DNA of 64,000 nucleotides from an uncultured Pseudomonadota bacterium (lineage in GTDB: Bacteria > Myxococcota_A > Polyangia > Fen-1088). The notes under the pieces are model-generated. The model saw only the letters and a program-made list of their open reading frames with translations. It was not told where the DNA came from and made no database searches. Below are positions 23,874 to 54,756 of this stretch, piece after piece (positions within the stretch are counted from its first letter, which is position 1; each line of letters opens with the position of its first letter). Position numbers and translations under genes: made by a program. The DNA lies in contig CAVSAG010000003.1 of assembly GCA_963725905.1 (NCBI GenBank), positions 449,546 through 513,545 on the forward strand, written 5' to 3'.

Positions 23874-23961
23874 CCATGTCGCGACGCGAACCTGACGCGG
23901 TCCGAAGCCCGTCCGGTGGAAGCGCTGGAGCTGGCGCGCGGGACCCTCTATCATCCGGCTC

Positions 23962-24777
23962 TTGCTTCGGCTGCCCCCGCATCTGTCGCTGCCCCTGGCG
24001 CTCGCCGTCTGGGTCGTCCCGATCTCGGGCGTCGCCGCGTCGGCCAAGCCGTCGCTGTCCAACTGGACGGCGGCCAAGCACGGCAAGGTCCTGGTGCCGG
24101 CGAAGGCGCCCGCGCCGAAGGCAGCCGCGCCGAAGGCAGCCGCGGCGAAGGCGCCCGCGGCGAAGGCGCCTGCGCCCGCGCCGCGGCCCGCCGCCGCGTC
24201 GCGGCCTACGGCCGCCGCCAGCGCTGGCACGAAGTCCAAGTCGAAATCGGAAGGCCCCGCTGTCGAAGGCCGGATCGCGGTGTTCGGCTTCACGGGTGAG
24301 GGCGCCGCGCGTGTCCAGCAGGTGGTCGTCAGCACGCTGCGCATGCGCGGGCTGCAGGTCACGACGACGCTGCGCCCGGTCGACAGCGCCGAGCAATTTC
24401 GCGAGATGGCTGCGACGCTGCGGCTCGCCGCCTACATCGAGGGGTCGGTCGGCGGCGCCGGGCCGCGCGGGCAGGCGACCGTGCACCTCCGCAGCGGCGT
24501 CACCGGACGGCGGATCGCCTCGGTCCATTTCTCCGGCGAGCGCGGCGCGCTGGCTGACGACGTCGGCAACGGGCTCTGGCCGCGGACCGGCGGCCAGCTC
24601 GCGCGCCTCTGCGCCGAGGCCAACAAGCCGCGCAAGGGTGGGCGGCGCGTGATGCGCATCGACGCGGGCACGCCGCTCGAGGCCACCGCGCCCGACGACT
24701 ACATCCCGCCGCACCTGCGCAACGAGCCTCCCAAGGGCCGCCAAAAGGACAATCCCTGGGCCGACGAAGGAACCTAG
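23962..24777 (+). CDS. Hypothetical exported protein with (A/P/K)-rich repeat region
   Basis: 271 aa. Signal-like N-terminus LSLPLALAVWVVPISGVAASA, a PAKAPAPKAAAPKAAAAKAPAAKAPAP low-complexity stretch, then a globular C-terminal half (GRIAVFGFTGEGAARVQQVVVSTLRMRG). Confidence 0.6.
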   Translation: MLRLPPHLSLPLALAVWVVPISGVAASAKPSLSNWTAAKHGKVLVPAKAPAPKAAAPKAAAAKAPAAKAPAPAPRPAAASRPTAAASAGTKSKSKSEGPAVEGRIAVFGFTGEGAARVQQVVVSTLRMRGLQVTTTLRPVDSAEQFREMAATLRLAAYIEGSVGGAGPRGQATVHLRSGVTGRRIASVHFSGERGALADDVGNGLWPRTGGQLARLCAEANKPRKGGRRVMRIDAGTPLEATAPDDYIPPHLRNEPPKGRQKDNPWADEGT

Positions 24778-40816: not shown

Positions 40817-41113
40817 TCAGCGCCGGGTCCAGTATCCCGAACGTCGCTTCAGATGCGCGACCGCAACGATCTCGATCTCGTCATCCGAAATCAGTCGATA
40901 GACGAGGGCGTAAGGAAACCGTCCCATCAACGTCCGTCGAGATCCCCGGGCCGCGGCCCAGCGCTCGGGTGCCTCCACGATCTCGTCCGCCTTCTTGCGA
41001 ACTGCGTGTACGAATCGGAGGCCGAGGCCGGGCGAGCGTTCGTCGTACCAAGCTGCAGCATCCTGCAGCTCGGCCTCGGCCATCGGGTTGAACCGCAGCC
41101 GTCTACTTGCCAC
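40817..41113 (-). CDS. Type II toxin, RelE/ParE family
   Basis: 98 aa. LRFNPMAEAELQDAAAWYDERSPGLGLRFVHAVRKKADEIVEAPERW...FPYALVYRLISDDEIEIVAVAHLKRR. Confidence 0.8.
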   Translation of the reverse strand: MASRRLRFNPMAEAELQDAAAWYDERSPGLGLRFVHAVRKKADEIVEAPERWAAARGSRRTLMGRFPYALVYRLISDDEIEIVAVAHLKRRSGYWTRR

Positions 41114-41330
41114 CGAATCGCTGCTCGAGACGCGCGAAAACGTCTTCGGCCGGGACCGTCTTCACGCGGCCGGTGTCCACGTCCTCCATCCGCCGCTTGA
41201 TCTCGCCCTCCCAATACTCGCCCAGATCCGACAGATCGAGACTGGCTGACAGCTCGTCGACGAGCTCTTCGCGCTCCTCGGGCCGAAGCTTGAGCGCGGC
41301 CTCGAGAACAGCCTTCGTGGCGGCGGACAT
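41103..41330 (-). CDS. Antitoxin of the 'putative addiction module component' type
   Basis: 75 aa. LKLRPEEREELVDELSASL...YWEGEIKRRMEDVDTGRVKTVPAEDVFARLEQR. 11-nt overlap with the toxin gene. Confidence 0.75.
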   Translation of the reverse strand: MSAATKAVLEAALKLRPEEREELVDELSASLDLSDLGEYWEGEIKRRMEDVDTGRVKTVPAEDVFARLEQRFGGK

Positions 41331-41490: not shown

Positions 41491-41838
41491 ATGCGTTTGC
41501 GCAGACTGGCTTTCGCGCTGCTCGTTGTCGGGGCGGCGGGGTGTGCGCACATGCAACCGACCCGCCTGTGGATCCGCTGCTGCGCGGGGGATGAACGCCC
41601 GGGCGGAGCCTGCGAAGAAGAGCAACGCTTCGCACAAGTCGTCCTGGACGGCACGGCGGCGGGTAAATGCGAGGACTGGGGAGGCGCCGGACGGTTGCTG
41701 GCGCCGGGGTGGCACCACATCGACGTCCAGGTTCGAGACGGTCGGGAAGGCTGTTGCTTCGCCGCCGACGTGGACCTCGAGGTCCCACCCGGCCAAACGA
41801 CCGCCTTTCGAGCCTACCTCGGTCGATTCCCCGATTGA
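41491..41838 (+). CDS. Small Cys-rich lipoprotein (paralog of 37059..37412)
   Basis: 115 aa. MRLRRLAFALLVVGAAGCAH...WIRCC...VVLDGTAAGKCEDWGG...GCC...LEVPPGQTTAFRAYLGRFPD. Confidence 0.7.
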   Translation: MRLRRLAFALLVVGAAGCAHMQPTRLWIRCCAGDERPGGACEEEQRFAQVVLDGTAAGKCEDWGGAGRLLAPGWHHIDVQVRDGREGCCFAADVDLEVPPGQTTAFRAYLGRFPD

Positions 41839-41911
41839 GGGCCCCGGTGACCCCCGTGGCGGAAGTAAGTGGGCAACCGGGTAAGCTCGATCGCAACCAG
41901 GAGCAGAATCG

Positions 41912-42590
41912 GTGCCTGTATCGACCACGATCAGAGCGGCAAATGCGGACGAGCTGGGGGTGATCGCGCGGCGGATGGACCGCGGGCGCGAAGGTGCCTT
42001 CGCCAGGGGGGGAGCGTGGCGCCGGGAAGCGGTTCGCGTGGGCGTCATTGGCGCCGTGGCGACGGTGGCTTCTGCGGTCCTGGTCCTCCGGACGCAGACA
42101 GGCGCCTTCGTCATCGGCGGCGCGCTCGGACTGACGTTCGTGGCCTTTGGTCTGCTGGGCTCGCGGCGTGCTAGCCGGTCGATCGAGGTTCGGCTGGCGG
42201 AATGGGGGCAGGCGCGCCATCACGGAATACCGGATCACGGCTGATCGGATCGTCACCGCCGCGGGCGAGGACGGAGACGTGTGGTGGCTGTTCCGGATCG
42301 ACCCTGGTGCTTGGCTGGCCTTCGAGCAAGGACAGTGGGATGGCGTCGACGGGTCGGCGCACCTGTGGTGCCGTGAGGCACGAATCGGCGTGGATGCTCA
42401 TCGCACGGTTGTTTCGATCGAGAGCACGGGCGACCCCATCGTGGTCGAACGACGCGACCTGCGACCACCGGACTTCGCGCCGACACCCGAGACACTGTTC
42501 TGGTCGCCGCCCGACGAGGCCGGCCCGTTACCCGTGCAGATCGCCGGTGATCCGACCGTCCCGATCGCGACTACATCATCGCCGACATGA
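41912..42590 (+). pseudogene. Two-TM membrane protein with a probable 1-nt insertion in a G5 run
   Basis: The listed ORF 41912..42244 has two TM helices (VGVIGAVATVASAVLVL, FVIGGALGLTFVAFGLL). The listed ORF 42147..42590 is only protein-like from ...AITEYRITADRIVTAAGEDGDVWWLFRIDP onward. The frames meet at the G5 run 42204-42208; G4 would give ...IEVRLAEWGRRAITEYRIT... The last 30 nt overlap J-box copy 3. Confidence 0.5.
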
Positions 42591-42730
42591 ACGGCTCCGC
42601 CGTGTTCCTGCTCGCCGCGCTGAAGATGCGGCTCGGCCTGGCGGCGCGGCGGTGTGGGGTCGGCGCGGAGGCGGCGGGACGGGGCGGGGGAGGCGGGGCG
42701 GGTGTTGGGGTGGTTCGAGGGGCTGGGGCG
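42561..42730. repeat. J-box copy 3 (42561-42601) plus G-rich cassette leader copy L (42651-42730)
   Basis: ccgatcgcgactacatcatcgccgacatgaacggctccgcc, followed 50 nt later by ggtgtggggtcggcgcggaggcggcgggacggggcgggggaggcggggcgggtgttggggtggttcgaggggctggggcg. The latter aligns with 46521-46597 at about 70-75% identity by eye, with the blocks in the same order. Confidence 0.7.
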
Positions 42731-42852
42731 CGGCTCGAAAACGGGAAACCCGCCGAGCCATTGATTCTTCCAGTAGGTTGGTAGTAATGTTGTGGTGAAC
42801 GTTGAGCTAGGAAGACGGGCCGCGCAATCGACATCCGCCACAGTAGGGAGAG

Positions 42853-44050
42853 ATGGCCGGCAAAGGATGAAACGTCCTAGAAGTTGGGAGGCTAAAAGCC
42901 GTCGCACCTGGGCAGGCGCTCGGCTACAGCCTCCAGTTCACCCGACTCACGGAGATGCTTCTTGCCGCGGCGCCAGGAACGTCGTGCACCTTGGAGGTTC
43001 TCGATGCGGAGATTGGCACCCATTGGCAGGTTGTCCTTGGGCAATCCAAGAGTGCGTTGACGGACAATCCAGTCGCCGACAGGGCACTTCCGCTCTGGAA
43101 GACGATCTCGACGGCTTGAAGGTTGCGAAGGAAGGCCTTGTCGAGCCTGAGCGCAAGACAACAATGTTCGAGCTCTATGTCTCGCGCCCGGTCAGTGGGA
43201 CGCTGATCGACGCATTCAACGCTGCCCGAACTCATGAGGACGCTGTGTTGGCGTTAGAGAAGGCGCGCCACGAACTCTGGGGCGACGGCCCCGATCTCTC
43301 TTCGCCCTTCCCTGTCGACCGCGATCGCCCCATACGTAAACGAGGTACTCGAAACCGAGGATTGTCTCCTCGCGCCGATCGTGATGGGCGACCTTACTGC
43401 GGCTCAGGGAGCCCTCAAGCCGATATCGAGGCGGCGATCCGCCAGGGGCCCGTGTCGGATGCGAAGGTCTTCACGATTGCGGACAAAATGTGCGGCTGGG
43501 TAAAACGACAGGTCGACAAACAGCTTGAGCGCGGGCTTCCGGCATTAGTTCAACGGGACGATTTTCATCGCGAGTATGTGGCGTTTGTTCGAAGTGTTGA
43601 CCGAGATATCATTCTTAGGAGCTTCGCAAAAAAGCCGTCTCAGTCCGATCTCCTGAGAGCACTTACCGGACCTATTTGTCCAGCAGCTCGACTGGATAGA
43701 CTTGGGGTTCGACGAGAAGTTGGAAGCTGTCAGTGACTATCTCAGATCTTCGATCGGGTCACCTGGAGCAAATCCGGTGATGTGCATGAAGACTCGTTCA
43801 TTGGCCTCAACGAGCAGCTGTGCCGCGTCTGGCGGAATAGCGCTCGTGCAGCCAGCCTAGAAGGCGCGGCGAGTTCAGACACCGAGCGTGAAAGGCGTGC
43901 ACTCGCTGTATGACCTACGAAACAAACGTGCAAGGCATGGAGGCCCCGGCGCACTTTGTTCCAGGATGTTTTCATCGGCTCGCCGACGAAGCGACCATTG
44001 GCTGGCATCCAGCGTATAAGGCCCGCTTGAAAGCTCGCTCCGCGTCATGA
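42853..44050 (+). pseudogene. ABC-3C-type effector gene (DUF4297/Cap4-like nuclease N-terminus plus ABC-3C C-terminal domain), multiply disrupted
   Basis: Conceptual translation pieced from three frames. MAGKG*NVLEVGRLKAVAPGQALGYSLQFTRLTEMLLAAAPGTSCTLEVLDAEIGTHWQVVLGQSKSALTDNPVADRALPLWK / LDGLKVAKEGLVEPERKTTMFELYVSRPVSGTLIDAFNAARTHEDAVLALEKARHELWG / LSTAIAPYVNEVLETEDCLLAPIVMGDLTAAQGALKPI / VFTIADKMCGWVKRQVDKQLERGLPALVQRDDFHREYVAFVRSVDRDIILRSFAKKPSQSDLL / HLPDLFVQQLDWIDLGFDEKLEAVSDYLRS / IFDRVTWSKSGDVHEDSFIGLNEQLCRVWRNSARAA / NVQGMEAPAHFVPGCFHRLADEATIGWHPAYKARL. Lesions: TGA at 42868, and frameshifts near 43100, 43290, 43425, 43658, 43745 and 43900. Confidence 0.55.
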
Positions 44051-44548
44051 CGGCGCTGGCGCGAGAGATACGGAATATCCAAAACCCCGCTCTCGGTGCC
44101 GGTCTAGTTTGGCGGTTCGTCTGCTGGCTACACGTCGGATCACCCGACCCGTGATCCGGCTCCGCTTCCCGCCTTGTTTCTTGTACTGCCCATTGTCTTG
44201 CACGAAGAGACTGACTCGTTCGTCCGGAGCACTCTACTGTCTTCCGGCCTTCGGTCATTCGCGGCGAAGTTCGGCACCTCCGCAAACTCAAAGCAAGATC
44301 TGCTGCTGGCGATTCACGCACGGATGCTTGCTCTGCGTCCGTTGACCCTCGCCTCAGTGCGCATCGCGCTCGCGACGCGACTCCTTCACCTTGAGACGGC
44401 CGCCGTGATTCCACTCTCGACGACCAAGGCCCAGGCCGGCATCCTCCCTGACACAAAACGGCTGATGAAGAGTGCGGAAAAACTTGGGGCGTGGTGCGGT
44501 CGCCTGACCTTGCACGAGATTGCGACAACCTTGAAAGTGAGATTGTGA
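44047..44548 (+). pseudogene. ABC-3C middle-component gene with one frameshift
   Basis: The ATG overlaps the upstream stop (ATGA). MTALAREIRNIQNPALGAGLVWRFVC, then a shift near 44122-44150, then GYTSDHPTRDPAPLPALFLVLPIVLHEETDSFVRSTLLSSGLRSFAAKFG...DLLLAIHARMLALRPLTLASVRIALATRLLHL... (listed ORF 44174..44548). The pattern matches what I recall for three-component ABC system middle components. Confidence 0.55.
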
Positions 44549-44551
44549 AAC

Positions 44552-46599
44552 GTGTTGTTCCAAATCAGAGAACTTGTCCTCTGGCCGCGCGACACAGCCT
44601 TCGCTCCGCGACGCGTGCCATTTGCGCCGGGGAAGGTCACGGTGATCAGCGGTGCTTCACGCACAGGAAAGTCTGCCGTCATACCAATAATCGACTATTG
44701 CTTGGCCTCCAGTGCCTGCCTGATCCCTGTCAAGACGATCCGTGAGGCCTCTGAGTGGTTTGGGATCGTGGTCAGCACCGCCAATGGCGATAAGTTGCTC
44801 GCGCGTCGGGAGCCCGGGAGTCAGCGGTCTACAGATGACAGGTTTCTCCTCGAGGCTCCCACAATTTCAGAGGTGCCTAGAGTCATCAGAAAGAACACGA
44901 GTGCGCCCGAGGTGCGCAGACTTCTCGATGAACTGGCAGGTCTCGAACCTGGACTTCGGTAGCGGTGAGACGCAGCAAGGCTTCGACGCGAGGCCGAGTT
45001 TCCCAGACCTAAGTGCCTTCACATTCCAGCCAGAATGTTGTCGCCAACCGAGAGATCCTGTTTTCAAAACGGATCGCTACGAACATCGTGAAAGCTTCGC
45101 AAGATATTCCCCTACGTTCTCGGCGCTATCACCCCGACTTTGCTGGCCGAACAACACGAGCTTAGGCGGCTGCAGACGGAATTGAAGCGAAAAGAACGAG
45201 AACTGCGCGATGCGCAGCAGATATCCGCGCAGTGGATTGCTGAGCTGAGAGCGCGGGTCAGCGAGGCGCGAGAGCTCGGCTTGCTGCCGATGGCGGCATC
45301 AGGTGATCTCGCTGAAGCGATGATCGTGCTCCTGAGGAAATTGTAACAGCGGACGGACGCGACTTTAGCCGTCAGTGCATCGACGATCTCGGACGCTGTT
45401 CGCGAACTGAATGCGCTCGACAATGAGGAGTCGAGTGTATCCCACGACCTAACAAGGCTTCGCTGGCGCCTTACGGAAATGAACCGCGTGCGCGAGAGCG
45501 TCACTAGCTATCGCGACGCTCTGCGGATACAGCGTGATCGACTTAGCTTGGCGGACTGGCTTGGAACCCACAGATCGGGCGATGAAAAGTGTCCGCTGTG
45601 TGGTGGAGGAACGGAGCCCAGCGAGAAAATGCTGCATGAACTCCAGGCATCCCTAGTGGAGCTTGCTCGTGAGGCGGGCGATACGTTCGAGGTTCCCGAA
45701 GTTTGACCGGGAATTCGAGAGGGTTCAGACGGACGTAAATGACGTCGCCGACAAGCTGAAGGCTGTGCAGATTCGCAAGCGAGCGCTGTCGCAGCGGTCG
45801 AAGGAGTAGATGATATGCAATACCAGGCGAAGAAGGTCGAGCGCTTCATAGGTAATCTCGAGAACGCGCTGACGTTGTACCGACGCCTCGGCGAGGACGG
45901 AGGGATCGCGACGGAGGTCGAGATGTTGCGCCTGCAGGTCGCGAAACTGACCGAAGAACTCCGTGCGCAAAACCTCGACGAACGGAAACGCCGCGCTTTG
46001 CGTATCGTCAACGGAAACGCTGGTCGCCTAATGCCGCTGCTGGATACCGAACGACCAACCGATCCTGTATCGCTGACATCAACGATCTGACGATCAGGGT
46101 AACGGGCACGGCGCGTGAAGACTACCTCTCCGAGATCGGCAGCGGATCAAATTGGCTCTCGTATCACCTCGCCATGAGTCTCGGCCTTCAGCAGTTTCTG
46201 ATCACCTTAGACCACAACGCAGTCCCGAGCTTTCTCGTGTTCGATCAGCCGAGTCAGGTCTATTTTCCTAAGAGAGCGGCGATTCGCGACTCGGAGGTGC
46301 CGGACGATCCGGGGCTCAGAGACGAAGACACCGAGGCCGTTCGGAAGGCATTCGAGGTAATGGGTCTGGTTGTAGGTAGTGCCAAGGGTCGACTCCAGAT
46401 CATTGTTCTCGACCATGCGCCTCGTGAAGTGTGGGGATCGGTTCCCAACGTGGTTGAGTTCGAGGAGTGGCGCGGCGGGAAGAAGCTCGTCCCTCCGGAG
46501 TGGATTCTAAGTAGCCGTCAGGCGTGGGCGGTAGCGGAGGCGGCCGGACGGGCTGGGGAGGCGGTGAGGTGTTGCGGCCGCTTGAGGGGTGAGTGCTAG
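44552..46599 (+). pseudogene. DUF3732-type ABC/SMC-like ATPase of an ABC-3C system, multiply disrupted
   Basis: N-terminus [65 protein letters not shown] (Walker A). Then FTFQP/QNVVANREILFSK/TDRYEHRE/KLRKIFPYVLGAITPTLLAEQHELRRLQTELKRKERELRDAQ. Coiled coil with KCPLCGG (~45589-45606). C-terminus DINDLTIRVTGTAREDYLSEIGSGSNWLSYHLAMSLGLQQFL...VPSFLVFDQPSQVYFP...LQIIVLDHAP. Lesions: frameshifts near 44930, 45030, 45068, 45093, 45705, 45808 and 46075, plus an in-frame TAA at 45344-45346. The native stop was probably near 46510; the ORF tail runs into leader copy M. Confidence 0.75.
46521..46597. repeat. G-rich cassette leader, copy M
   Basis: ggcgtgggcggtagcggaggcggccggacgggctggggaggcggtgaggtgttgcggccgcttgaggggtgagtgc. 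This is a high-GC patch inside the low-GC island, collinear with 42651-42730. Shared blocks: GCGGAGGCGGC.GGACGGG, GGGGAGGCGG, GGTGTTG.GG, GAGGGG.TG.G.GC. Confidence 0.7.
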
Positions 46600-46842
46600 A
46601 CAGGACCGTCAATGACACTTCGTAGGTATGACGGTAGACACTCGAGGGCGGCCATCTCCATGGGCTCAACCTCACGCCGGGCGGTGGGTGACCTGTGTTG
46701 TCTTGTGACCGGCGACGGTATACAGTTGTTCAGGTATGGTCCTCCGGCTTCTCGATGGCCTCCAGAACCGAAGAACGAAGCCCATCCAAAAATGCGCTTC
46801 GGTGAGCGGCAGGTAGAGTCATGCTCCGCTTATCTCGTCACC

Positions 46843-47727
46843 ATGAACATCTTCGACTCGCCGGCCCAAACGCTGGTGAATACGGTGAATACCGTCGGGA
46901 TCATACTGGGCAAGGGAATCGCCGCCGAATATAAGAAACGATACCCCGAGATGTTCCACCGGTACGCCGAGTTCTGCGCCAACGGAATGCTAACCACCGG
47001 GATGTTGTACCTCTATCGAAGCCCGAACAAGTGGGTGCTGAACTTCCCAACCAAGCGTCATTGGCGGAATCCTTCCAAAGTAGAATACATTGAGGAGGGA
47101 CTTAAGAAGTTCGTGGCCACCTGGGCTGAGTACGGCATCACGAGCATCTCGTTTCCACAGTTGGGTACAGGCAACGGCGGGCTGGACTGGGAAAAGGCCG
47201 TTCAGCCCCTGATGGAGCGACACCTAAAGGATCTGCCCCTATCGATATTCATCCACGTTGCGAAGACCCGCTCCGATTTGTCCCTGAGCAGAAGAACGCG
47301 GTCAGCCGGAAGCACTTGCTCAAACCGAGAGTGGACGTCAGTTTCAATGAGTTTTTTTCTGATTCCTCTCGGAACACGCGAGTGGCGTGGAGCCGGTGGC
47401 GAGCAATGAGACCGGACGAGAGGAGCCAGAACCTCTTCCGCGGCTCCGATGCTCCGATCGTCTGACCATAGCCGGGGAGGATTTGCGCTCTCTGTGGCTC
47501 TATTAACCTTGCGCGGGGCGTTGCGGATCGACGAATTCCCCGCCAGCCTCAAGAAGCATTCTGAGGTCGTAACTTCGTTACTTCTTCAGCTCGGCTACAT
47601 CCGTCCGGCTCAGTTCACGGGCGATAGCGCGCGCAACATGAGAGGAATCCGCTTCGCTCCTGCTGCCGATGAGTCTCCTGAGTCAACTCAGCCGATGACG
47701 CCCGAGCTTGAAGCCCTGGGCCGGTAA
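46843..47727 (+). pseudogene. DarG-like macrodomain protein with a C-terminal extension, disrupted by frameshifts
   Basis: From the ATG at 46843: MNIFDSPAQTLVNTVNTVGIILGKGIAAEYKKRYPEMFHRYAEFCANGMLTTGMLYLYRSPNKWVLNFPTKRHWRNPSKVEYIEEGLKKFVATWAEYGITSISFPQLGTGNGGLDWEKAVQPLMERHLKDLPLSIFIHV. These are the macrodomain hallmarks VNTVN..G..GKGIA, FPTKRHWR and GNGGLDW. The reading continues in other frames: EDPLRFVPEQKNAVSRKHLLKPRVDVSFNEFFSDS... and ...LTLRGALRIDEFPASLKKHSEVVTSLLLQLGYIRPAQF. Frameshifts near 47255, 47463 and 47505. Confidence 0.8.
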
Positions 47728-47773
47728 GCTTCGGCAGCATGTCTTTGGCTGGCAGAAAACGCTGCCAAAGGAC

Positions 47774-48609
47774 ATGGCCCAGTTCGTCTATCGCTTCGAC
47801 GAACTTAAGAATGCCATCAATATCTTAAACCAGGGGTACTGGCCCAGTTGAGCCGAGTGCGAGAGGCGGGGTGTTCCGTTCGTAGATTGCGCGAGTTCAA
47901 CCGTCATCGCGAACACCCTCGGCTCCCATAAGGACTTCGTCCGCATTCTATCCTCGAACCCCGACGCAGTACCACAACGAAGGGATCCGGCCCGTATCGT
48001 CCTATTCGAACCAGGGGGCTCACTGCGCTGTACCCGTGTTCATGATGTTCGATTTCGTGAACTTGCTCGCCGACGACCAGACGCAGTTTTCGATAGGAAA
48101 CATGGCGAGCGCTGGCGTTGAGTTCGGCGCCAGTGAGGCACTCTTCGCAGAGTATTCCATTCGACCTCGTATATCACCGAGGATCGACCTGGGGCCATCA
48201 GAATGCCGGTACGATTACGTTTCATCGCCACGCCGAAGTGCTGGTGCCCGTGAGCTTGTCCACAGAGGGAATCAAGCGGATCGTTTGCCGTTCGCATCCC
48301 GAACGCCGAACGCTCCTGTACGGGTTGAGCCCGGGAATCCGTGCGCGCTTTGAAAACGTAGTTAGCGTCGAGGCAAGTGAGTTTTTCGAGCGCGCTTGGG
48401 CGTTTGTTGAAAAGGTCGAGCCGGGAAACGGTTCTTTGAAATTTACCTTTCATGCTGCCGATTCTCTCCCATCACCCCTGCGTGTGACCTTCAGGTACGA
48501 GGACGGGACCCGTACGTGGGGCTGGCAAGAACACTGGCAACTTCGCAGGCCGTTGACTATGGACCTCTCGAAGGCCGGTCCTATGGGAGTGGCGACGCTC
48601 TGGATTTGA
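47774..48609 (+). pseudogene. DarT-like ADP-ribosyltransferase with a C-terminal extension, disrupted
   Basis: Pieced translation: MAQFVYRFDELKNAINILNQGYWPS*AECERRGVPFVDCASSTVIANTLGSHKDFVR / FYPRTPTQYHNEGIRPVSSYSNQGAHCAVPVFMMFDFVNLLADDQTQFSIGNMASAGVEFGASEALFAE / IPFDLVYHRGSTWGHQNAGTITFHRHAEVLVPVSLSTEGIKRIVCRSHPERRTLLYGL..., followed by ~100 aa more. The motif order (N-terminal ..NIL..G, F.PRTP..Y, FS.GN.AS, RHAEVLVP) parallels DarT/DUF4433 as I remember it. Lesions: in-frame TGA at 47849-47851 and frameshifts near 47945 and 48155. Confidence 0.5.
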
Positions 48610-48667
48610 AGGAGCCAAGGCGTTCCAAGACAAGGTTATTCTCACTGAAGCGCCACTCTGATCGCAG

Positions 48668-48700
48668 GCCGCCCCACCCTCGACACCCCGCCCCCTCCTC
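48668..48700. repeat. Possible inverted partial copy of the G-rich leader at the right island edge
   Basis: The reverse complement gaggagggggcggggtgtcgagggtggggcggc resembles ggggaggcggggcgggtgt...tcgaggggctggggcgcggc of copy L. It is short and low-complexity, so this is tentative. Confidence 0.3.
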
Positions 48701-48716
48701 TGCTAAACCCGCGCCC

Positions 48717-49913
48717 ATGAAACTCTTCGTCGAGGACCTCCCCGTCACTGGCAAGCGCGTCATCGTGCGCGTCGACTTCAACGTCCCCCTGAAGGACGGG
48801 AAGGTGGAGAGCGACAAGCGGCTCCGGGAGTCGCTGCCGACCATCGAGTACCTGCGCAAGAAAGAGGCGAAGGTGATCTTGATGTCGCACCTCGGGCGGC
48901 CCGACGGGAAGCGCGTGCCGGAGATGAGCCTGCGGCCCGTCGCCGATGCGCTCTCCGCGCTCCTCAACTCGCCCGTCGCCTTCGCCGAGGACTGCGTCGG
49001 GCCGGCCGCCGAGAAGGCCGTCTCCGCGCTCGCCCCCGGCGGCGTGCTCCTGCTCGAGAACCTCCGCTTTCACGCCGCCGAGGAGGAGAACGATCCCGCG
49101 TTTGCCAAGCAGCTCGCCGCGCTGGCCGACGTCTACGTGAACGACGCGTTCGGCAGCGCCCACCGCGCGCACGCGTCGACCGAGGGGATCACCAAGTTCG
49201 TGCCGCAGGCGGCGTCGGGGTTCCTCATGAAGAAGGAGCTCGACTACCTGGGCGAGGCGCTCGGGAATCCGAAGCGGCCGTTCGTCGCGGTGATCGGCGG
49301 GTCGAAGGTGTCGGGGAAGATCGACGTCATCAAGAACCTCCTGCCGCGCGTCGACAAGCTGCTGATCGGCGGCGGCATGACCTACACGTTCCTGAAGGCG
49401 CAGGGGCTGGAGGTCGGCAAGTCGATCGTGGAGAACGACAAGATCGAGCTCGCCAAGAGCCTGATGGCCGAGGCCGGCGACAAGCTGGTGCTGGGGACCG
49501 ACTTCGTGGCGACCGACAAGCTGGACTTCAAGGCGCGCACCGTGGGGGCGACCAAGGTCGTGACCAGGACGACCATCCCGGCCGACTGGGAGTGCGTCGA
49601 CATCGGGCCGGAGACCACGGCGGAGTTCACCAAGATCCTGCTCGGCGCCAAGACCGTCTGCTGGAACGGCCCGGTGGGCGTGTTCGAGATTGATGCCACC
49701 GCCAAGGGGACGATCGCCGTCGCCGAGGCGCTGGCCAAGGCGACCGCGGCCGGCGCGACCACCATCATCGGCGGCGGCGATTCGGCGTCTGCCGTGAAGA
49801 AGGCGGGCGTCGCCAGCAAGGTGTCGCACGTCTCGACCGGCGGCGGCGCGTCGCTGGAGTTCCTCGAGGGCAAGGTGCTCCCGGGCGTCGCGGCGCTCAG
49901 CGACAAGAAGTGA
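48717..49913 (+). CDS. pgk: Phosphoglycerate kinase
   Basis: ATG at 48717 inside the listed 48516..49913 ORF. 398 aa. VIVRVDFNVPL, LMSHLGRPDG, NDAFGSAHRAHAST, AVIGGSKVSGKI, LLIGGGMTYTF, WNGPVGVFE, STGGGASLEFLEG. Confidence 0.95.
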   Translation: MKLFVEDLPVTGKRVIVRVDFNVPLKDGKVESDKRLRESLPTIEYLRKKEAKVILMSHLGRPDGKRVPEMSLRPVADALSALLNSPVAFAEDCVGPAAEKAVSALAPGGVLLLENLRFHAAEEENDPAFAKQLAALADVYVNDAFGSAHRAHASTEGITKFVPQAASGFLMKKELDYLGEALGNPKRPFVAVIGGSKVSGKIDVIKNLLPRVDKLLIGGGMTYTFLKAQGLEVGKSIVENDKIELAKSLMAEAGDKLVLGTDFVATDKLDFKARTVGATKVVTRTTIPADWECVDIGPETTAEFTKILLGAKTVCWNGPVGVFEIDATAKGTIAVAEALAKATAAGATTIIGGGDSASAVKKAGVASKVSHVSTGGGASLEFLEGKVLPGVAALSDKK

Positions 49914-53454: not shown

Positions 53455-54756
53455 ATGAGCTCTTGTTGCGCGCGCACGAGGTTCGCTGTTTCTCGATTTT
53501 CCTCGGCTGCACGACTCACCCGCGTGGCGGCGGTGCTCCTGGCCGTGTCGGGCTGCGATGGCTCTTCCGGCTCTGGCACCTCGGCCGGAAGCGGAGGTGG
53601 CGGCGGGGTGACCGGGAGCGGCGGGAGCGGCGCGGTGGGCGGGATGAGCGCCGGCGGCGCCGGTGGACTTTCCGGCGGCGCCGGCGGTGCCGCGAACGGA
53701 GGCTCGGCCGGCGGCGCTCCGCCCGGAATCGGCGGGGACTGCTGCGCTCCGCTCGGAACCGGCGGGACCGGCGGCGCGACGCTCGGGGGCGGCGGTGCGG
53801 CCGGCCATCCCGCGGGCGGAGGCGCTGCCGGCAGCGGTGGCGCCGGGGGACATCCCGCGGGGGGAGGCGCTGCCGGCAGCGGTGGCGCCGGGGGACATCC
53901 CGCGGGGGGAGGCAGCGGGGGCGCGGGCGGTCAGGGCGCGCACGGCGGCGTCGGCGGAGGCGCGGCCGGTAGCGGCGGCGCGGGCGGCAAGGCGGGCAAC
54001 ACAGCTCAGATCTGCACGCCGGGCGAGCACGCTTGCCTCGGAAGCGCTCTTTACGTCTGCAACACCGCCGGCACGGCTCGAACGCAGCAGATTCTCTGCG
54101 CCGCCGGCACGTATTGCGACGTCCCGACGCTCGGCTGCCTGCCCCAGATCTGCACGCCGCAGGATCCGGCGTGCGACGGCCAGGTCGCCACGACCTGCAA
54201 CATCACCGGTTCCGGCTACGAGGGGACGCGCACCGATTGCTCGGCGACGCCCGGCCAGCACTGCGAGAGCGGGATGTGCACCTCGCTCACCACCGCCACG
54301 GTCGGCTCGCCGCAGGACACCGGCGCGGTCGGCTCCAGCGAGATGACGTTCAACTTCTACGCCGTGACGGTCAACGTGGCCCTCGCCGAGATCGACGAGC
54401 AGCTGGAAACGAACGCCACCACGAACGTCGCCTGGGCGGTGTACGACGCGGGGACCAATCCCCAGGACGAGTACTACCTGGTCTCGTGGGCGGAGATGTA
54501 CACCTTCTCGAGCTACTACACCTCCTCCGGGCCGATCAGCGTCCCCTTGCTGGCCGGTCACAACTACGCCATCGGCATCTCCGTGCTCGGGTCGTCGCTG
54601 TTTTATTCGGAGACGGGAGCTCTCCCGCAAACGACCAGCTTCGGCACGCTCATCAGCGCGGGGAGCTATTCCGGTGCGCCGCCCCCCTCGACCGGAATCC
54701 CCTGGCGCGCGCCCGCGGGCTTCTTCTATCCGCAAATCCTGAAGACCCAGCACTAA
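53455..54756 (+). CDS. Lipoprotein with a long Gly-rich linker and a Cys-rich/beta domain (hypothetical)
   Basis: 433 aa. VAAVLLAVSGC lipobox. A ~150-aa Gly linker containing the 45-nt repeats. Cys-rich segment ICTPGEHACLGSALYVCN...CESGMC, then a globular C-terminus. Confidence 0.7.
   Translation: MSSCCARTRFAVSRFSSAARLTRVAAVLLAVSGCDGSSGSGTSAGSGGGGGVTGSGGSGAVGGMSAGGAGGLSGGAGGAANGGSAGGAPPGIGGDCCAPLGTGGTGGATLGGGGAAGHPAGGGAAGSGGAGGHPAGGGAAGSGGAGGHPAGGGSGGAGGQGAHGGVGGGAAGSGGAGGKAGNTAQICTPGEHACLGSALYVCNTAGTARTQQILCAAGTYCDVPTLGCLPQICTPQDPACDGQVATTCNITGSGYEGTRTDCSATPGQHCESGMCTSLTTATVGSPQDTGAVGSSEMTFNFYAVTVNVALAEIDEQLETNATTNVAWAVYDAGTNPQDEYYLVSWAEMYTFSSYYTSSGPISVPLLAGHNYAIGISVLGSSLFYSETGALPQTTSFGTLISAGSYSGAPPPSTGIPWRAPAGFFYPQILKTQH
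53806..53916. repeat. In-frame tandem repeat, about 2.4 x 45 nt
   Basis: catcccgcggg(c/g)ggaggcgctgccggcagcggtggcgccggggga repeated; it encodes (HPAGGGAAGSGGAGG)n. Confidence 0.85.

Follow-up and report, generated by a model that had tools for sequence, protein, structure and literature searches.

A broken macrodomain and DarT-family gene pair in a Polyangia genome, and the conserved macro-first family to which it points

What is one looking at when a macrodomain gene precedes a DarT-like ADP-ribosyltransferase (ART) gene, and both are broken? The question is raised by two overlapping pseudogenes on the plus strand (46821-48661) of a 64,000-nucleotide stretch from an uncultured bacterium of the Polyangia (contig CAVSAG010000003.1, positions 449,546 to 513,545), here called the window, whose coordinates we use throughout. 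In DarTG2, the system that the pair calls to mind, the antitoxin is likewise a macro protein, and the toxin gene comes first (PMC5179494). A first-pass annotation of the window had described the pair as DarTG-like genes in reversed order, and all the motifs that it quoted for the two genes are found on the plus strand. We find that the macro-first order is the mark of a conserved family, not of a local rearrangement, and that the window pair is very probably a dead, non-functional relic, a judgement that covers its pseudogene status, its identity and its family membership together. The genes and their domains are (nt, nucleotides; aa, amino acids):

46821..47727, plus strand: macro-protein pseudogene (presumed antitoxin), about 299 aa when intact, stop codon TAA at 47725-47727
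46843..47268, plus strand: DarG-type (TARG1-like) macrodomain, with VNTVNTVG..GKGIA, NFPTKRHW (the catalytic-Lys motif) and GNGGLDW
47269..47724, plus strand: family-specific C-terminal domain of the macro protein (about 150 aa), conserved in 36 family members
47708..48661, plus strand: DarT-family ADP-ribosyltransferase pseudogene (presumed toxin), about 317 aa when intact, start TTG at 47708, stop TGA at 48659-48661
47780..48312, plus strand: ART (DarT) catalytic domain, with YRFDE, FYPRTPTQY, FSIGNMAS and RHAEVLVP (containing the catalytic Glu)
48400..48640, plus strand: fibronectin-III (FN3)/Ig-like beta-sandwich at the transferase C-terminus, as modelled by AlphaFold2 for the intact homologue P0001

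The macro-first family and its relation to known systems

A protein search with the repaired transferase retrieved 104 relatives, mostly of 315-336 aa and nearly all carrying PF14487. At nine places examined, which represent six distinct DarT proteins, the gene just upstream, on the same strand and often overlapping, encodes a macro protein of about 300 aa, the Bacillus cereus type being the exception; hosts of such intact pairs include Myxococcales, Dehalococcoidia and Paenibacillus. A scan of 185,579 species, each represented by one genome, confirmed 275 loci, and in every one of the 80 loci whose gene order was examined the macro gene lies immediately upstream of the transferase gene on the same strand. 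Intact macro-first pairs, for which the first-pass annotation had proposed to search the databases, do exist. The 80 loci belong to Chloroflexota, Myxococcota, Planctomycetota, Acidobacteriota, Latescibacterota, Bacillota, Bacteroidota, Verrucomicrobiota, Gemmatimonadota and Alphaproteobacteria. In intact members the second gene usually overlaps the first (by 0-20 nt in close homologues) or starts within about 200 nt of it. When a full-length profile was run with HMMER against 1.84 billion cluster representatives (at 50% identity), 830 proteins matched at E <= 1e-30; the best 150 of these all match as a single stretch over both domains, most of them 314-349 aa long with near-complete coverage of the profile, alongside about a dozen shorter, truncated entries and two longer ones. 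Automated labels call the members 'DarT family' and 'macro domain-containing', and the PADLOC profiles for DarT and DarG match them, i.e. the family is visible in automated annotation but undifferentiated.

The most distant members, from the Bacillus cereus group (L008-L010), combine a 336-aa DarT with the extra domain and a 350-aa macro protein that is encoded divergently, on the opposite strand. Beside these pairs lie genes for Tn7-like transposition and for an AIPR protein of abortive infection.

That the second gene encodes a DarT-family transferase, as first proposed, is borne out by sequence and by fold. The repaired product matches Pfam DarT (PF14487, DUF4433) with 59.7 bits, against a gathering score of 22.5, and scores 17 bits with the NCBIfam model NF048013 toxin_DarT (cut-off 150), where the intact homologue P0001 reaches 41 bits and the best E-value among 41 family members is 5e-17. 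Fold comparisons were made on an AlphaFold2 model of P0001 (76% identical to the repaired window product; predicted local distance difference test, pLDDT, 95) and not on the broken gene of the window. Residues 1 to about 220 of this model match Thermus DarT (7OMY) in Foldseek with E 8.7e-11 and a template-modelling (TM) score of 0.73 normalised to the target, and the model also matches M. tuberculosis DarT 7YK3 and 7OMU; comparing a model with DarT structures, a check that the first-pass annotation had suggested, thus did reveal an ART fold. When the family was aligned with canonical DarT2 by HHalign (probability 98.5%, E 3.9e-15, 170 columns, 19% identity), the Tyr of VRLYF was paired with Y71 of the H-Y-E triad (the Tyr in VPFYF), and the Glu of HRHAEVLVP with the catalytic Glu of KQAEFLV (E160 of Thermus DarT). 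The Glu of RHAEVLVP, already singled out as putatively catalytic from the window sequence, is likewise matched in the profile alignment with M. tuberculosis DarT 7YK3. Both the Tyr and the Glu are invariant in 41 family members; in the window the Glu codon is present, while the Tyr position coincides with a 5-nt deletion. By profiles and model, the family transferase is a remote homologue of DarT2. At the position that contacts the base (H119 in Thermus DarT2, N104 in DarT1) the family has Asn (FSxGN), and since M. tuberculosis DarT2 has Asn there too, the target base is not predictable from this residue. The extra beta-rich domain that had been noticed at the C-terminus corresponds in the P0001 model to a seven-stranded FN3/Ig-like sandwich (residues ~233-312, pLDDT above 90) whose best Foldseek matches are FN3 domains (E ~1e-3). 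A search of a viral structure library with the transferase returned weak ART and FN3 matches only, and no close phage counterpart.

The reading of the first gene as a DarG-type macrodomain also holds. Its repaired product matches Pfam Macro (E 2e-17), the PADLOC DarG profile (E 1e-53, over positions 8-152 of 329 only) and NCBIfam NF048014 antitoxin_DarG (170 bits, cut-off 250, over positions 7-151 of 338 only). The motif of the catalytic Lys (K80), NFPTK(R/K)HW, does not vary among 36 members and is kept in the window. In a fold search with a model of the homologue P0105 (moderate confidence in the macrodomain, mean pLDDT 75, and ~90 in the C-terminal part), the macrodomain was 40-41% identical to the DarG macrodomains of T. 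aquaticus and M. tuberculosis, the match to that of T. aquaticus (5M31) having E 2.8e-11 and 41% identity. The C-terminal domain of the macro protein has no match among Pfam families and none beyond chance level among PDB sequences, 7YK3 (deposited as the M. tuberculosis DarTG complex) included, and its profile shows no homology to canonical DarG (HHalign probability 0.15%); in the fold search with P0105 macrodomain matches filled the top 50, and the C-terminal domain was not seen separately. The last ~60 residues of the macro protein (~47474-47655) run helix-strand-helix-helix-strand-strand, and by this order of secondary structure the C-terminal end would resemble a winged helix.

How does the family relate to the DarTG systems already described? 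DarT2 is a thymidine-specific transferase acting on single-stranded DNA, with the DarG macrodomain protein as its antitoxin, known from Thermus, M. tuberculosis and enteropathogenic Escherichia coli (EPEC) (PMC5179494, PMC11543638). With DarTG2 the macro-first family shares the ART fold and Pfam family of the toxin with its conserved catalytic Tyr and Glu, the TARG1-like DarG macrodomain with the catalytic-Lys motif, a two-domain antitoxin, and adjacent genes on one strand. It differs in its antitoxin-first order (80 of 80 loci), whereas canonical DarTG2 loci on plasmids of Tolypothrix, Klebsiella, Meiothermus and B. thuringiensis are toxin-first in four of four. It differs also in a toxin of ~320 aa with a C-terminal FN3/Ig-like domain, compared with ~210 aa in canonical DarT, in an antitoxin C-terminal domain that is not homologous to the DarT-binding domain of DarG, in lacking a basic residue at the position of DarT2 R51 (in a loop whose alignment is of low confidence), and in scores far under the NCBI equivalog cut-offs. 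Canonical DarT proteins measure 209-212 aa in three loci (with macro proteins of 340-362 aa), but the toxin-first DarT2 of Klebsiella pneumoniae plasmid p4-KP21300 (L096 2368-3702; macro protein of 371 aa) has 444 aa and carries an HD-like motif (LAAYLHDIGK) in its C-terminal extension, so that such extensions are not unique to the macro-first family.

The other relatives are more distant. DarTG1 pairs the guanine-specific transferase DarT1 with a NADAR antitoxin (PMC11543638); like the macro-first family, it joins a DarT-family toxin to an enzyme that removes the mark, and it shares the Asn at the base-contacting position, but the family's antitoxin is a macrodomain and not NADAR, and the family profile matches E. 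coli C7 DarT1 with E 0.25, compared with 4e-5 to 2e-3 for DarT2 structures among PDB sequences. A search of plasmids and phages with a DarT1 fragment gave no usable match. DarHTG, which consists of DarT, the ARH-type DarG3 and a UvrD-like helicase (PMC13069673), is likewise a variant, recognised recently, that keeps the toxin and changes the partner; there, however, the partner has an ADP-ribosylglycohydrolase fold and a helicase is added, whereas in our family a DarG-type macrodomain is joined to a new C-terminal domain, without a third gene. Among PDB sequences, the one that the family profile matches best (E 4e-5) is the DarT-macro fusion of Thermosipho africanus (7OMU), in which toxin and macrodomain are also coupled, but in one polypeptide, with DarT N-terminal to the macrodomain and without an FN3-like domain.

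Five DarT groups have reportedly been defined (Schuller 2021), and these may contain macro-first members. A literature search, whose coverage did not extend to LeRoux 2022 and Schuller 2021, found neither an antitoxin-first class nor the FN3-like domain nor the alternative C-terminal domain of the antitoxin described, and provisionally the family appears to be uncharacterised. A tree of ~5000 DarT sequences exists (PMC11481870) and may also include members of it.

Decay of the window copy

When the window was searched by tblastn with the intact transferases P0001 and P0002, its transferase gene came out in pieces, in three frames, at 63-90% identity; the macro gene is 67% identical in amino acids to the intact macro protein of L001, a metagenomic contig, summed over three frames. 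Relative to L001, in the DNA alignment, the following lesions were placed:

46831..46836, plus strand: 4 nt inserted after the family start codon and before Met-7 (as aligned with L001 and L093), which throw ATG 46821 out of frame
46901..46906 (approximately), plus strand: in-frame insertion of 3 nt in the macro gene, GIMGKG becoming GIILGKG, with loss of the Met of the GxMGKG loop
47279..47280, plus strand: macro gene frameshift, 1 nt deleted after 47279
47364..47365, plus strand: macro gene frameshift, 2 nt inserted
47503..47504, plus strand: macro gene frameshift, 1 nt deleted after 47503
47849..47851, plus strand: nonsense codon TGA in the transferase gene, CGA in the intact homologue
47944..47945, plus strand: transferase frameshift, 5 nt deleted after 47944, just 5' of FYPRTPTQY
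48148, plus strand: transferase frameshift, 1 nt inserted
48605..48607, plus strand: transferase frameshift, 1 nt inserted in a T run at ~48605, giving rise to a false stop at 48607-48609 and hiding the last 17 codons

The Met replaced by the 3-nt insertion is invariant in 36 family members. In all, the pair has at least eight disabling lesions (six frameshifts, a nonsense codon and the insertion at the invariant Met), four in each gene relative to L001; the first-pass annotation was thus right that both genes are broken, although it had counted three lesions in each. The alignment also redraws the gene limits that it had proposed. The usual macro start in the family is ATG 46821 and not the alternative ATG 46843, from which it is separated by the 4-nt insertion; the transferase, thought to be ~280 aa long and to end at 48609, extends to the TGA at 48659-48661, 48609 being the end of the false stop; and, instead of a gap of 47 nt, the two genes overlap by 20 nt (TTG 47708 and the macro stop at 47725-47727), exactly as in the intact L001. 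Programmed frameshifting was considered and ruled out: the lesions are too many and too varied, and intact homologues require none.

The nearest relatives of the pair at the DNA level lie in other surroundings. Two metagenomic contigs, L094 (83% nucleotide identity over window 46690-48668) and L001 (78% over 46799-48666), share with the window the cassette alone (46690-48668), their flanks being different, which fits a ~2-kb cassette moving as a unit between unrelated contexts. A third relative, L093 (from the Polyangia metagenome-assembled genome, MAG, GCA_035546895.1), is 86% identical, in the macro gene only (L093 8880-9774). There an insertion sequence (IS) element with a DDE_Tnp_1 transposase directly follows the stop codon of the intact macro gene, and no DarT gene is detectable after it; loss of the toxin with retention of the antitoxin, as this arrangement suggests, is the order expected for a toxin-antitoxin pair. 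The order suggested for the window in the first-pass annotation, loss of the toxic function after its partner had decayed, finds no support in the window sequence. Since L093 74-843 matches window 23949-24775 (76%), this MAG comes from a relative of the organism of the window.

Upstream of the macro gene only one non-coding stretch, of 39 nt, is kept across these four close homologues:

46698..46736, plus strand: conserved upstream block TTGTCTTGTGACCGGCGACGGTATACAGTTGTTCAGGTA, nearly invariant in the window, L094, L093 and L001

It could be a promoter (TTGTCT, 15 nt, TATACA) and/or operator of the pair. Consensus scans of 46500-48800 found neither a sigma-70 promoter nor an intrinsic terminator, and because the sigma-70 scan gave no site we infer such a role from conservation.

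Codon changes specific to each branch were counted with L001 as the outgroup. On the window branch synonymous and non-synonymous changes number 30 and 9 in the macro gene and 40 and 14 in the transferase gene (70 and 23 in total), compared with 25 and 5, and 25 and 9, on the branch of the intact L094; the ratios of non-synonymous to synonymous changes are thus 0.30 (macro) and 0.35 (transferase) in the window, and 0.20 and 0.36 in L094. Indels seem to be at least as numerous as neutral substitutions since the inactivation of the window pair.

What intact members may do, and the rival explanations

In intact members the product of the first gene is a DarG-type macrodomain ADP-ribosyl hydrolase joined to the family-specific C-terminal domain of ~150 aa, and that of the second a DarT-family ADP-ribosyltransferase that carries an Ig/FN3-like domain. 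By homology with DarT2 and DarG, the transferase would modify a base of a nucleic acid, probably of single-stranded DNA, with ADP-ribose from NAD+, and so block replication; the macrodomain would strip off the ADP-ribose mark, and the antitoxin C-terminal domain might additionally restrain the toxin and/or repress the operon. Antitoxin-first, overlapping genes are the layout of ordinary type II toxin-antitoxin operons. Such operons, of which the window itself holds a ParDE-like example at 40817-41330, resemble the family in antitoxin-first order, overlapping or tight genes and a small, mobile, patchily distributed cassette; they differ in that the antitoxin of the family is, like DarG, an enzyme that would reverse the product of the toxin, and its C-terminal DNA binding is conjectural. 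The toxin-antitoxin reading fits because the genes are antitoxin-first and overlapping, because the 2-kb unit is mobile, and because in L093 an IS element stands in the place of the toxin. By homology we somewhat favour a reversible, nucleic-acid ADP-ribosylating toxin-antitoxin module for the intact members; the overall explanation, which blends identity, relic status and this mechanism, seems likely to us. The domain identities, the folds, the conserved Tyr and Glu, the strict gene order, the size of the family and the pseudogene status are established, while toxicity, substrate, antitoxin mechanism and a role in defence would follow by analogy. The FN3-like domain and the antitoxin C-terminal domain possibly dock onto each other, bind DNA or sense a trigger. 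A defence role of intact members against phages is plausible, and the neighbours of the window pair belong to conflict systems (a decayed ABC-three-component, ABC-3C, system and the intact ParE-type pair at 40817-41330), although the context of the family as a whole gives no support to it.

Several observations weigh against this interpretation. It is an extrapolation from proteins that share 15-20% identity in the toxin and 40% in the macrodomain. The His of the H-Y-E triad is Arg in the window and its closest relatives (YRFDE), and His in most of the wider family (YHFTD). Arg in its place is the solution found in ARTC enzymes (R-S-E), and with it the transferase may still be active. In the HHalign alignment, which is of low confidence in this loop, the two Arg of the DarT2 QRR motif, R51 included, face Asn-Thr of the family; R51 is the proton-abstracting Arg of DarT2 (PMC11543638), and because it aligns with non-basic residues the chemistry or the target of the family may differ from those of DarT2. 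The family has invariant arginines of its own (R48, R79, R175 and R196), and a shifted one, R48 or R79, might conceivably replace R51 structurally. Among the 120 nearest large open reading frames (ORFs) scanned around the 80 loci, most encode histidine kinases, major facilitator superfamily (MFS) and ATP-binding cassette (ABC) transporters or metabolic enzymes, and only two or three restriction-modification methylases; with neighbours that are mostly housekeeping, an association with defence islands is not evident for the family, by a test that is crude in taking the longest ORF per side in high-GC DNA, where many ORFs are spurious. Lastly, the substitutions on the window branch look selected, which is odd for genes with eight lesions. 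Nearly all of them were thus made under selection, and therefore the inactivation was recent and dominated by indels, or was itself selected for, or some of the lesions are errors.

Could the errors be the whole story, both genes being intact in the organism and broken in the assembly or the sequence? Six of the eight lesions are indeed small indels, and the window-branch ratios (0.30 and 0.35; in intact L094, 0.20 and 0.36) are those of purifying selection. However, one lesion is a nonsense substitution and others are indels of 2, 3, 4 and 5 nt, for the most part away from homopolymers, and the damage is limited to a low-GC island (described below) in which the genes of an ABC-3C system are fragmented too; since pgk and long ORFs in most of the rest of the window are intact, the frameshifts do not reflect a general assembly problem, and we regard this explanation as improbable. 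Still less credible is a canonical DarTG2 whose genes were swapped by a local rearrangement here and subsequently decayed. Its macrodomain would be clearly DarG-type and its transferase a member of Pfam DarT, as observed, but an identical order with the same extra domains recurs in all 80 loci, across many phyla, and in intact close homologues at 78-86% nucleotide identity; we give a swap almost no credence. What stands of the original suggestion of an antitoxin-first variant is therefore the distinct class, and what falls is the reversal of canonical DarTG, from which the family is set apart by its scores (41 bits in intact members, where the DarT equivalog requires 150, and 170 bits for the repaired macro product of the window, where DarG requires 250) and by an antitoxin C-terminal domain without homology to that of DarG.

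A more serious rival holds that intact members are a housekeeping writer and eraser pair, which would regulate by reversible ADP-ribosylation of DNA, RNA or protein in the manner of DraT/DraG or as proposed for M. tuberculosis DarTG. Reversible DNA ADP-ribosylation has been reported as a growth control in M. tuberculosis (PMC12170906), the neighbours are mostly housekeeping genes, and the proton-abstracting Arg of DarT2 is not conserved in the family. Several Chloroflexota loci (L057-L059, L068, L069, L079, L080 and L083, several of them Anaerolineae and Aggregatilineales) moreover share a context of a HAMP/HisKA histidine kinase and an ABC permease, and shared neighbours suggest vertical retention of the pair in that lineage, i.e. 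stable inheritance. One would not, however, expect of a housekeeping pair a distribution as patchy as 275 of 185,579 species, a 2-kb cassette that travels between differing contexts, a window copy in a low-GC island beside another conflict system, a relative (L093) that has kept the antitoxin gene without the toxin gene, or the Mrr, Schlafen/AlbA_2, AIPR and transposon genes found near some relatives. We consider it unlikely, and retain the toxin-antitoxin module as the better account of the intact members. A more specific version of that module is offered only tentatively: a third, mechanistically distinct macrodomain-linked DarTG class, in which the antitoxin-first operon would be repressed through the winged-helix-like antitoxin domain, the toxin would work without the proton-abstracting Arg, maybe on another base or nucleic acid, and the Ig/FN3 domain would dock the antitoxin or sense a phage trigger.

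DarT enzymes, now being developed as tools for genome editing, are the model for base-specific ADP-ribosylation of DNA, and in M. tuberculosis DarG is a drug target. In the DarT classes studied so far both the base specificity and the reversing enzyme differ from class to class. The macro-first class (~830 clusters at 50% identity, in Chloroflexota, Myxococcota, Planctomycetota, Bacillota and others), set apart by its operon logic, its added Ig-like domain and its altered catalytic constellation, would be a ready reservoir of new specificities and would offer a new way of restraining a toxin. The window copy itself adds little biology beyond pointing to the intact family, and illustrates how such a cassette dies, in a foreign island and alongside a neighbouring conflict system.

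The low-GC island and its surroundings

The pair lies at the right end of an island that is foreign and whose GC content is below that of most flanking windows. Its features and nearest neighbours are:

40817-41330, minus strand: type II toxin-antitoxin pair, apparently intact, just to the left of the island (ParE_toxin PF05016, E 5e-9; Unstab_antitox PF09720, E 2e-10)
43000..48661 (~5.6 kb), no strand: low-GC island holding the pair and the decayed ABC-3C system, GC 0.54-0.61 compared with 0.65-0.73 in most flanking windows
~44110-44550: fragments of the ABC-3C middle component MC3 (PF20131, E 6e-22), split over several frames
44552 (N-terminus) and ~46100-46520 (C-terminus): fragments of the ABC-3C DUF3732 ATPase (PF12532, E 6e-41), split over several frames
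48717-49913: intact pgk, directly downstream of the pair (Pfam PGK, E 2e-160)

ORFs of at least 330 aa occur across the rest of the window and none between 42300 and 48500; the largest ORF wholly within the island has 314 aa (42792-43736, at the left edge, with no family match), and none there reaches 330 aa. Within the ABC-3C region (43100-46600) the pieces at 43100-43900 matched no family. No convincing direct repeats flanking the island emerged when 41500-49500 was searched for repeats, and there is no tRNA in the window and no integrase in the island.

Another Polyangia MAG (SMAG_U6167; L050 2895-8465) has a distantly related macro-DarT pair 2.4 kb away from pgk-tpiA, on the far side of pgk and convergent with it, while the window pair is directly upstream of pgk. 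Together the two may indicate a region of recurrent insertion, or may be a coincidence. Further along the window, at 53500-53999, GC reaches 0.82 and GC skew +0.21 over 500 nt, far above the surroundings.

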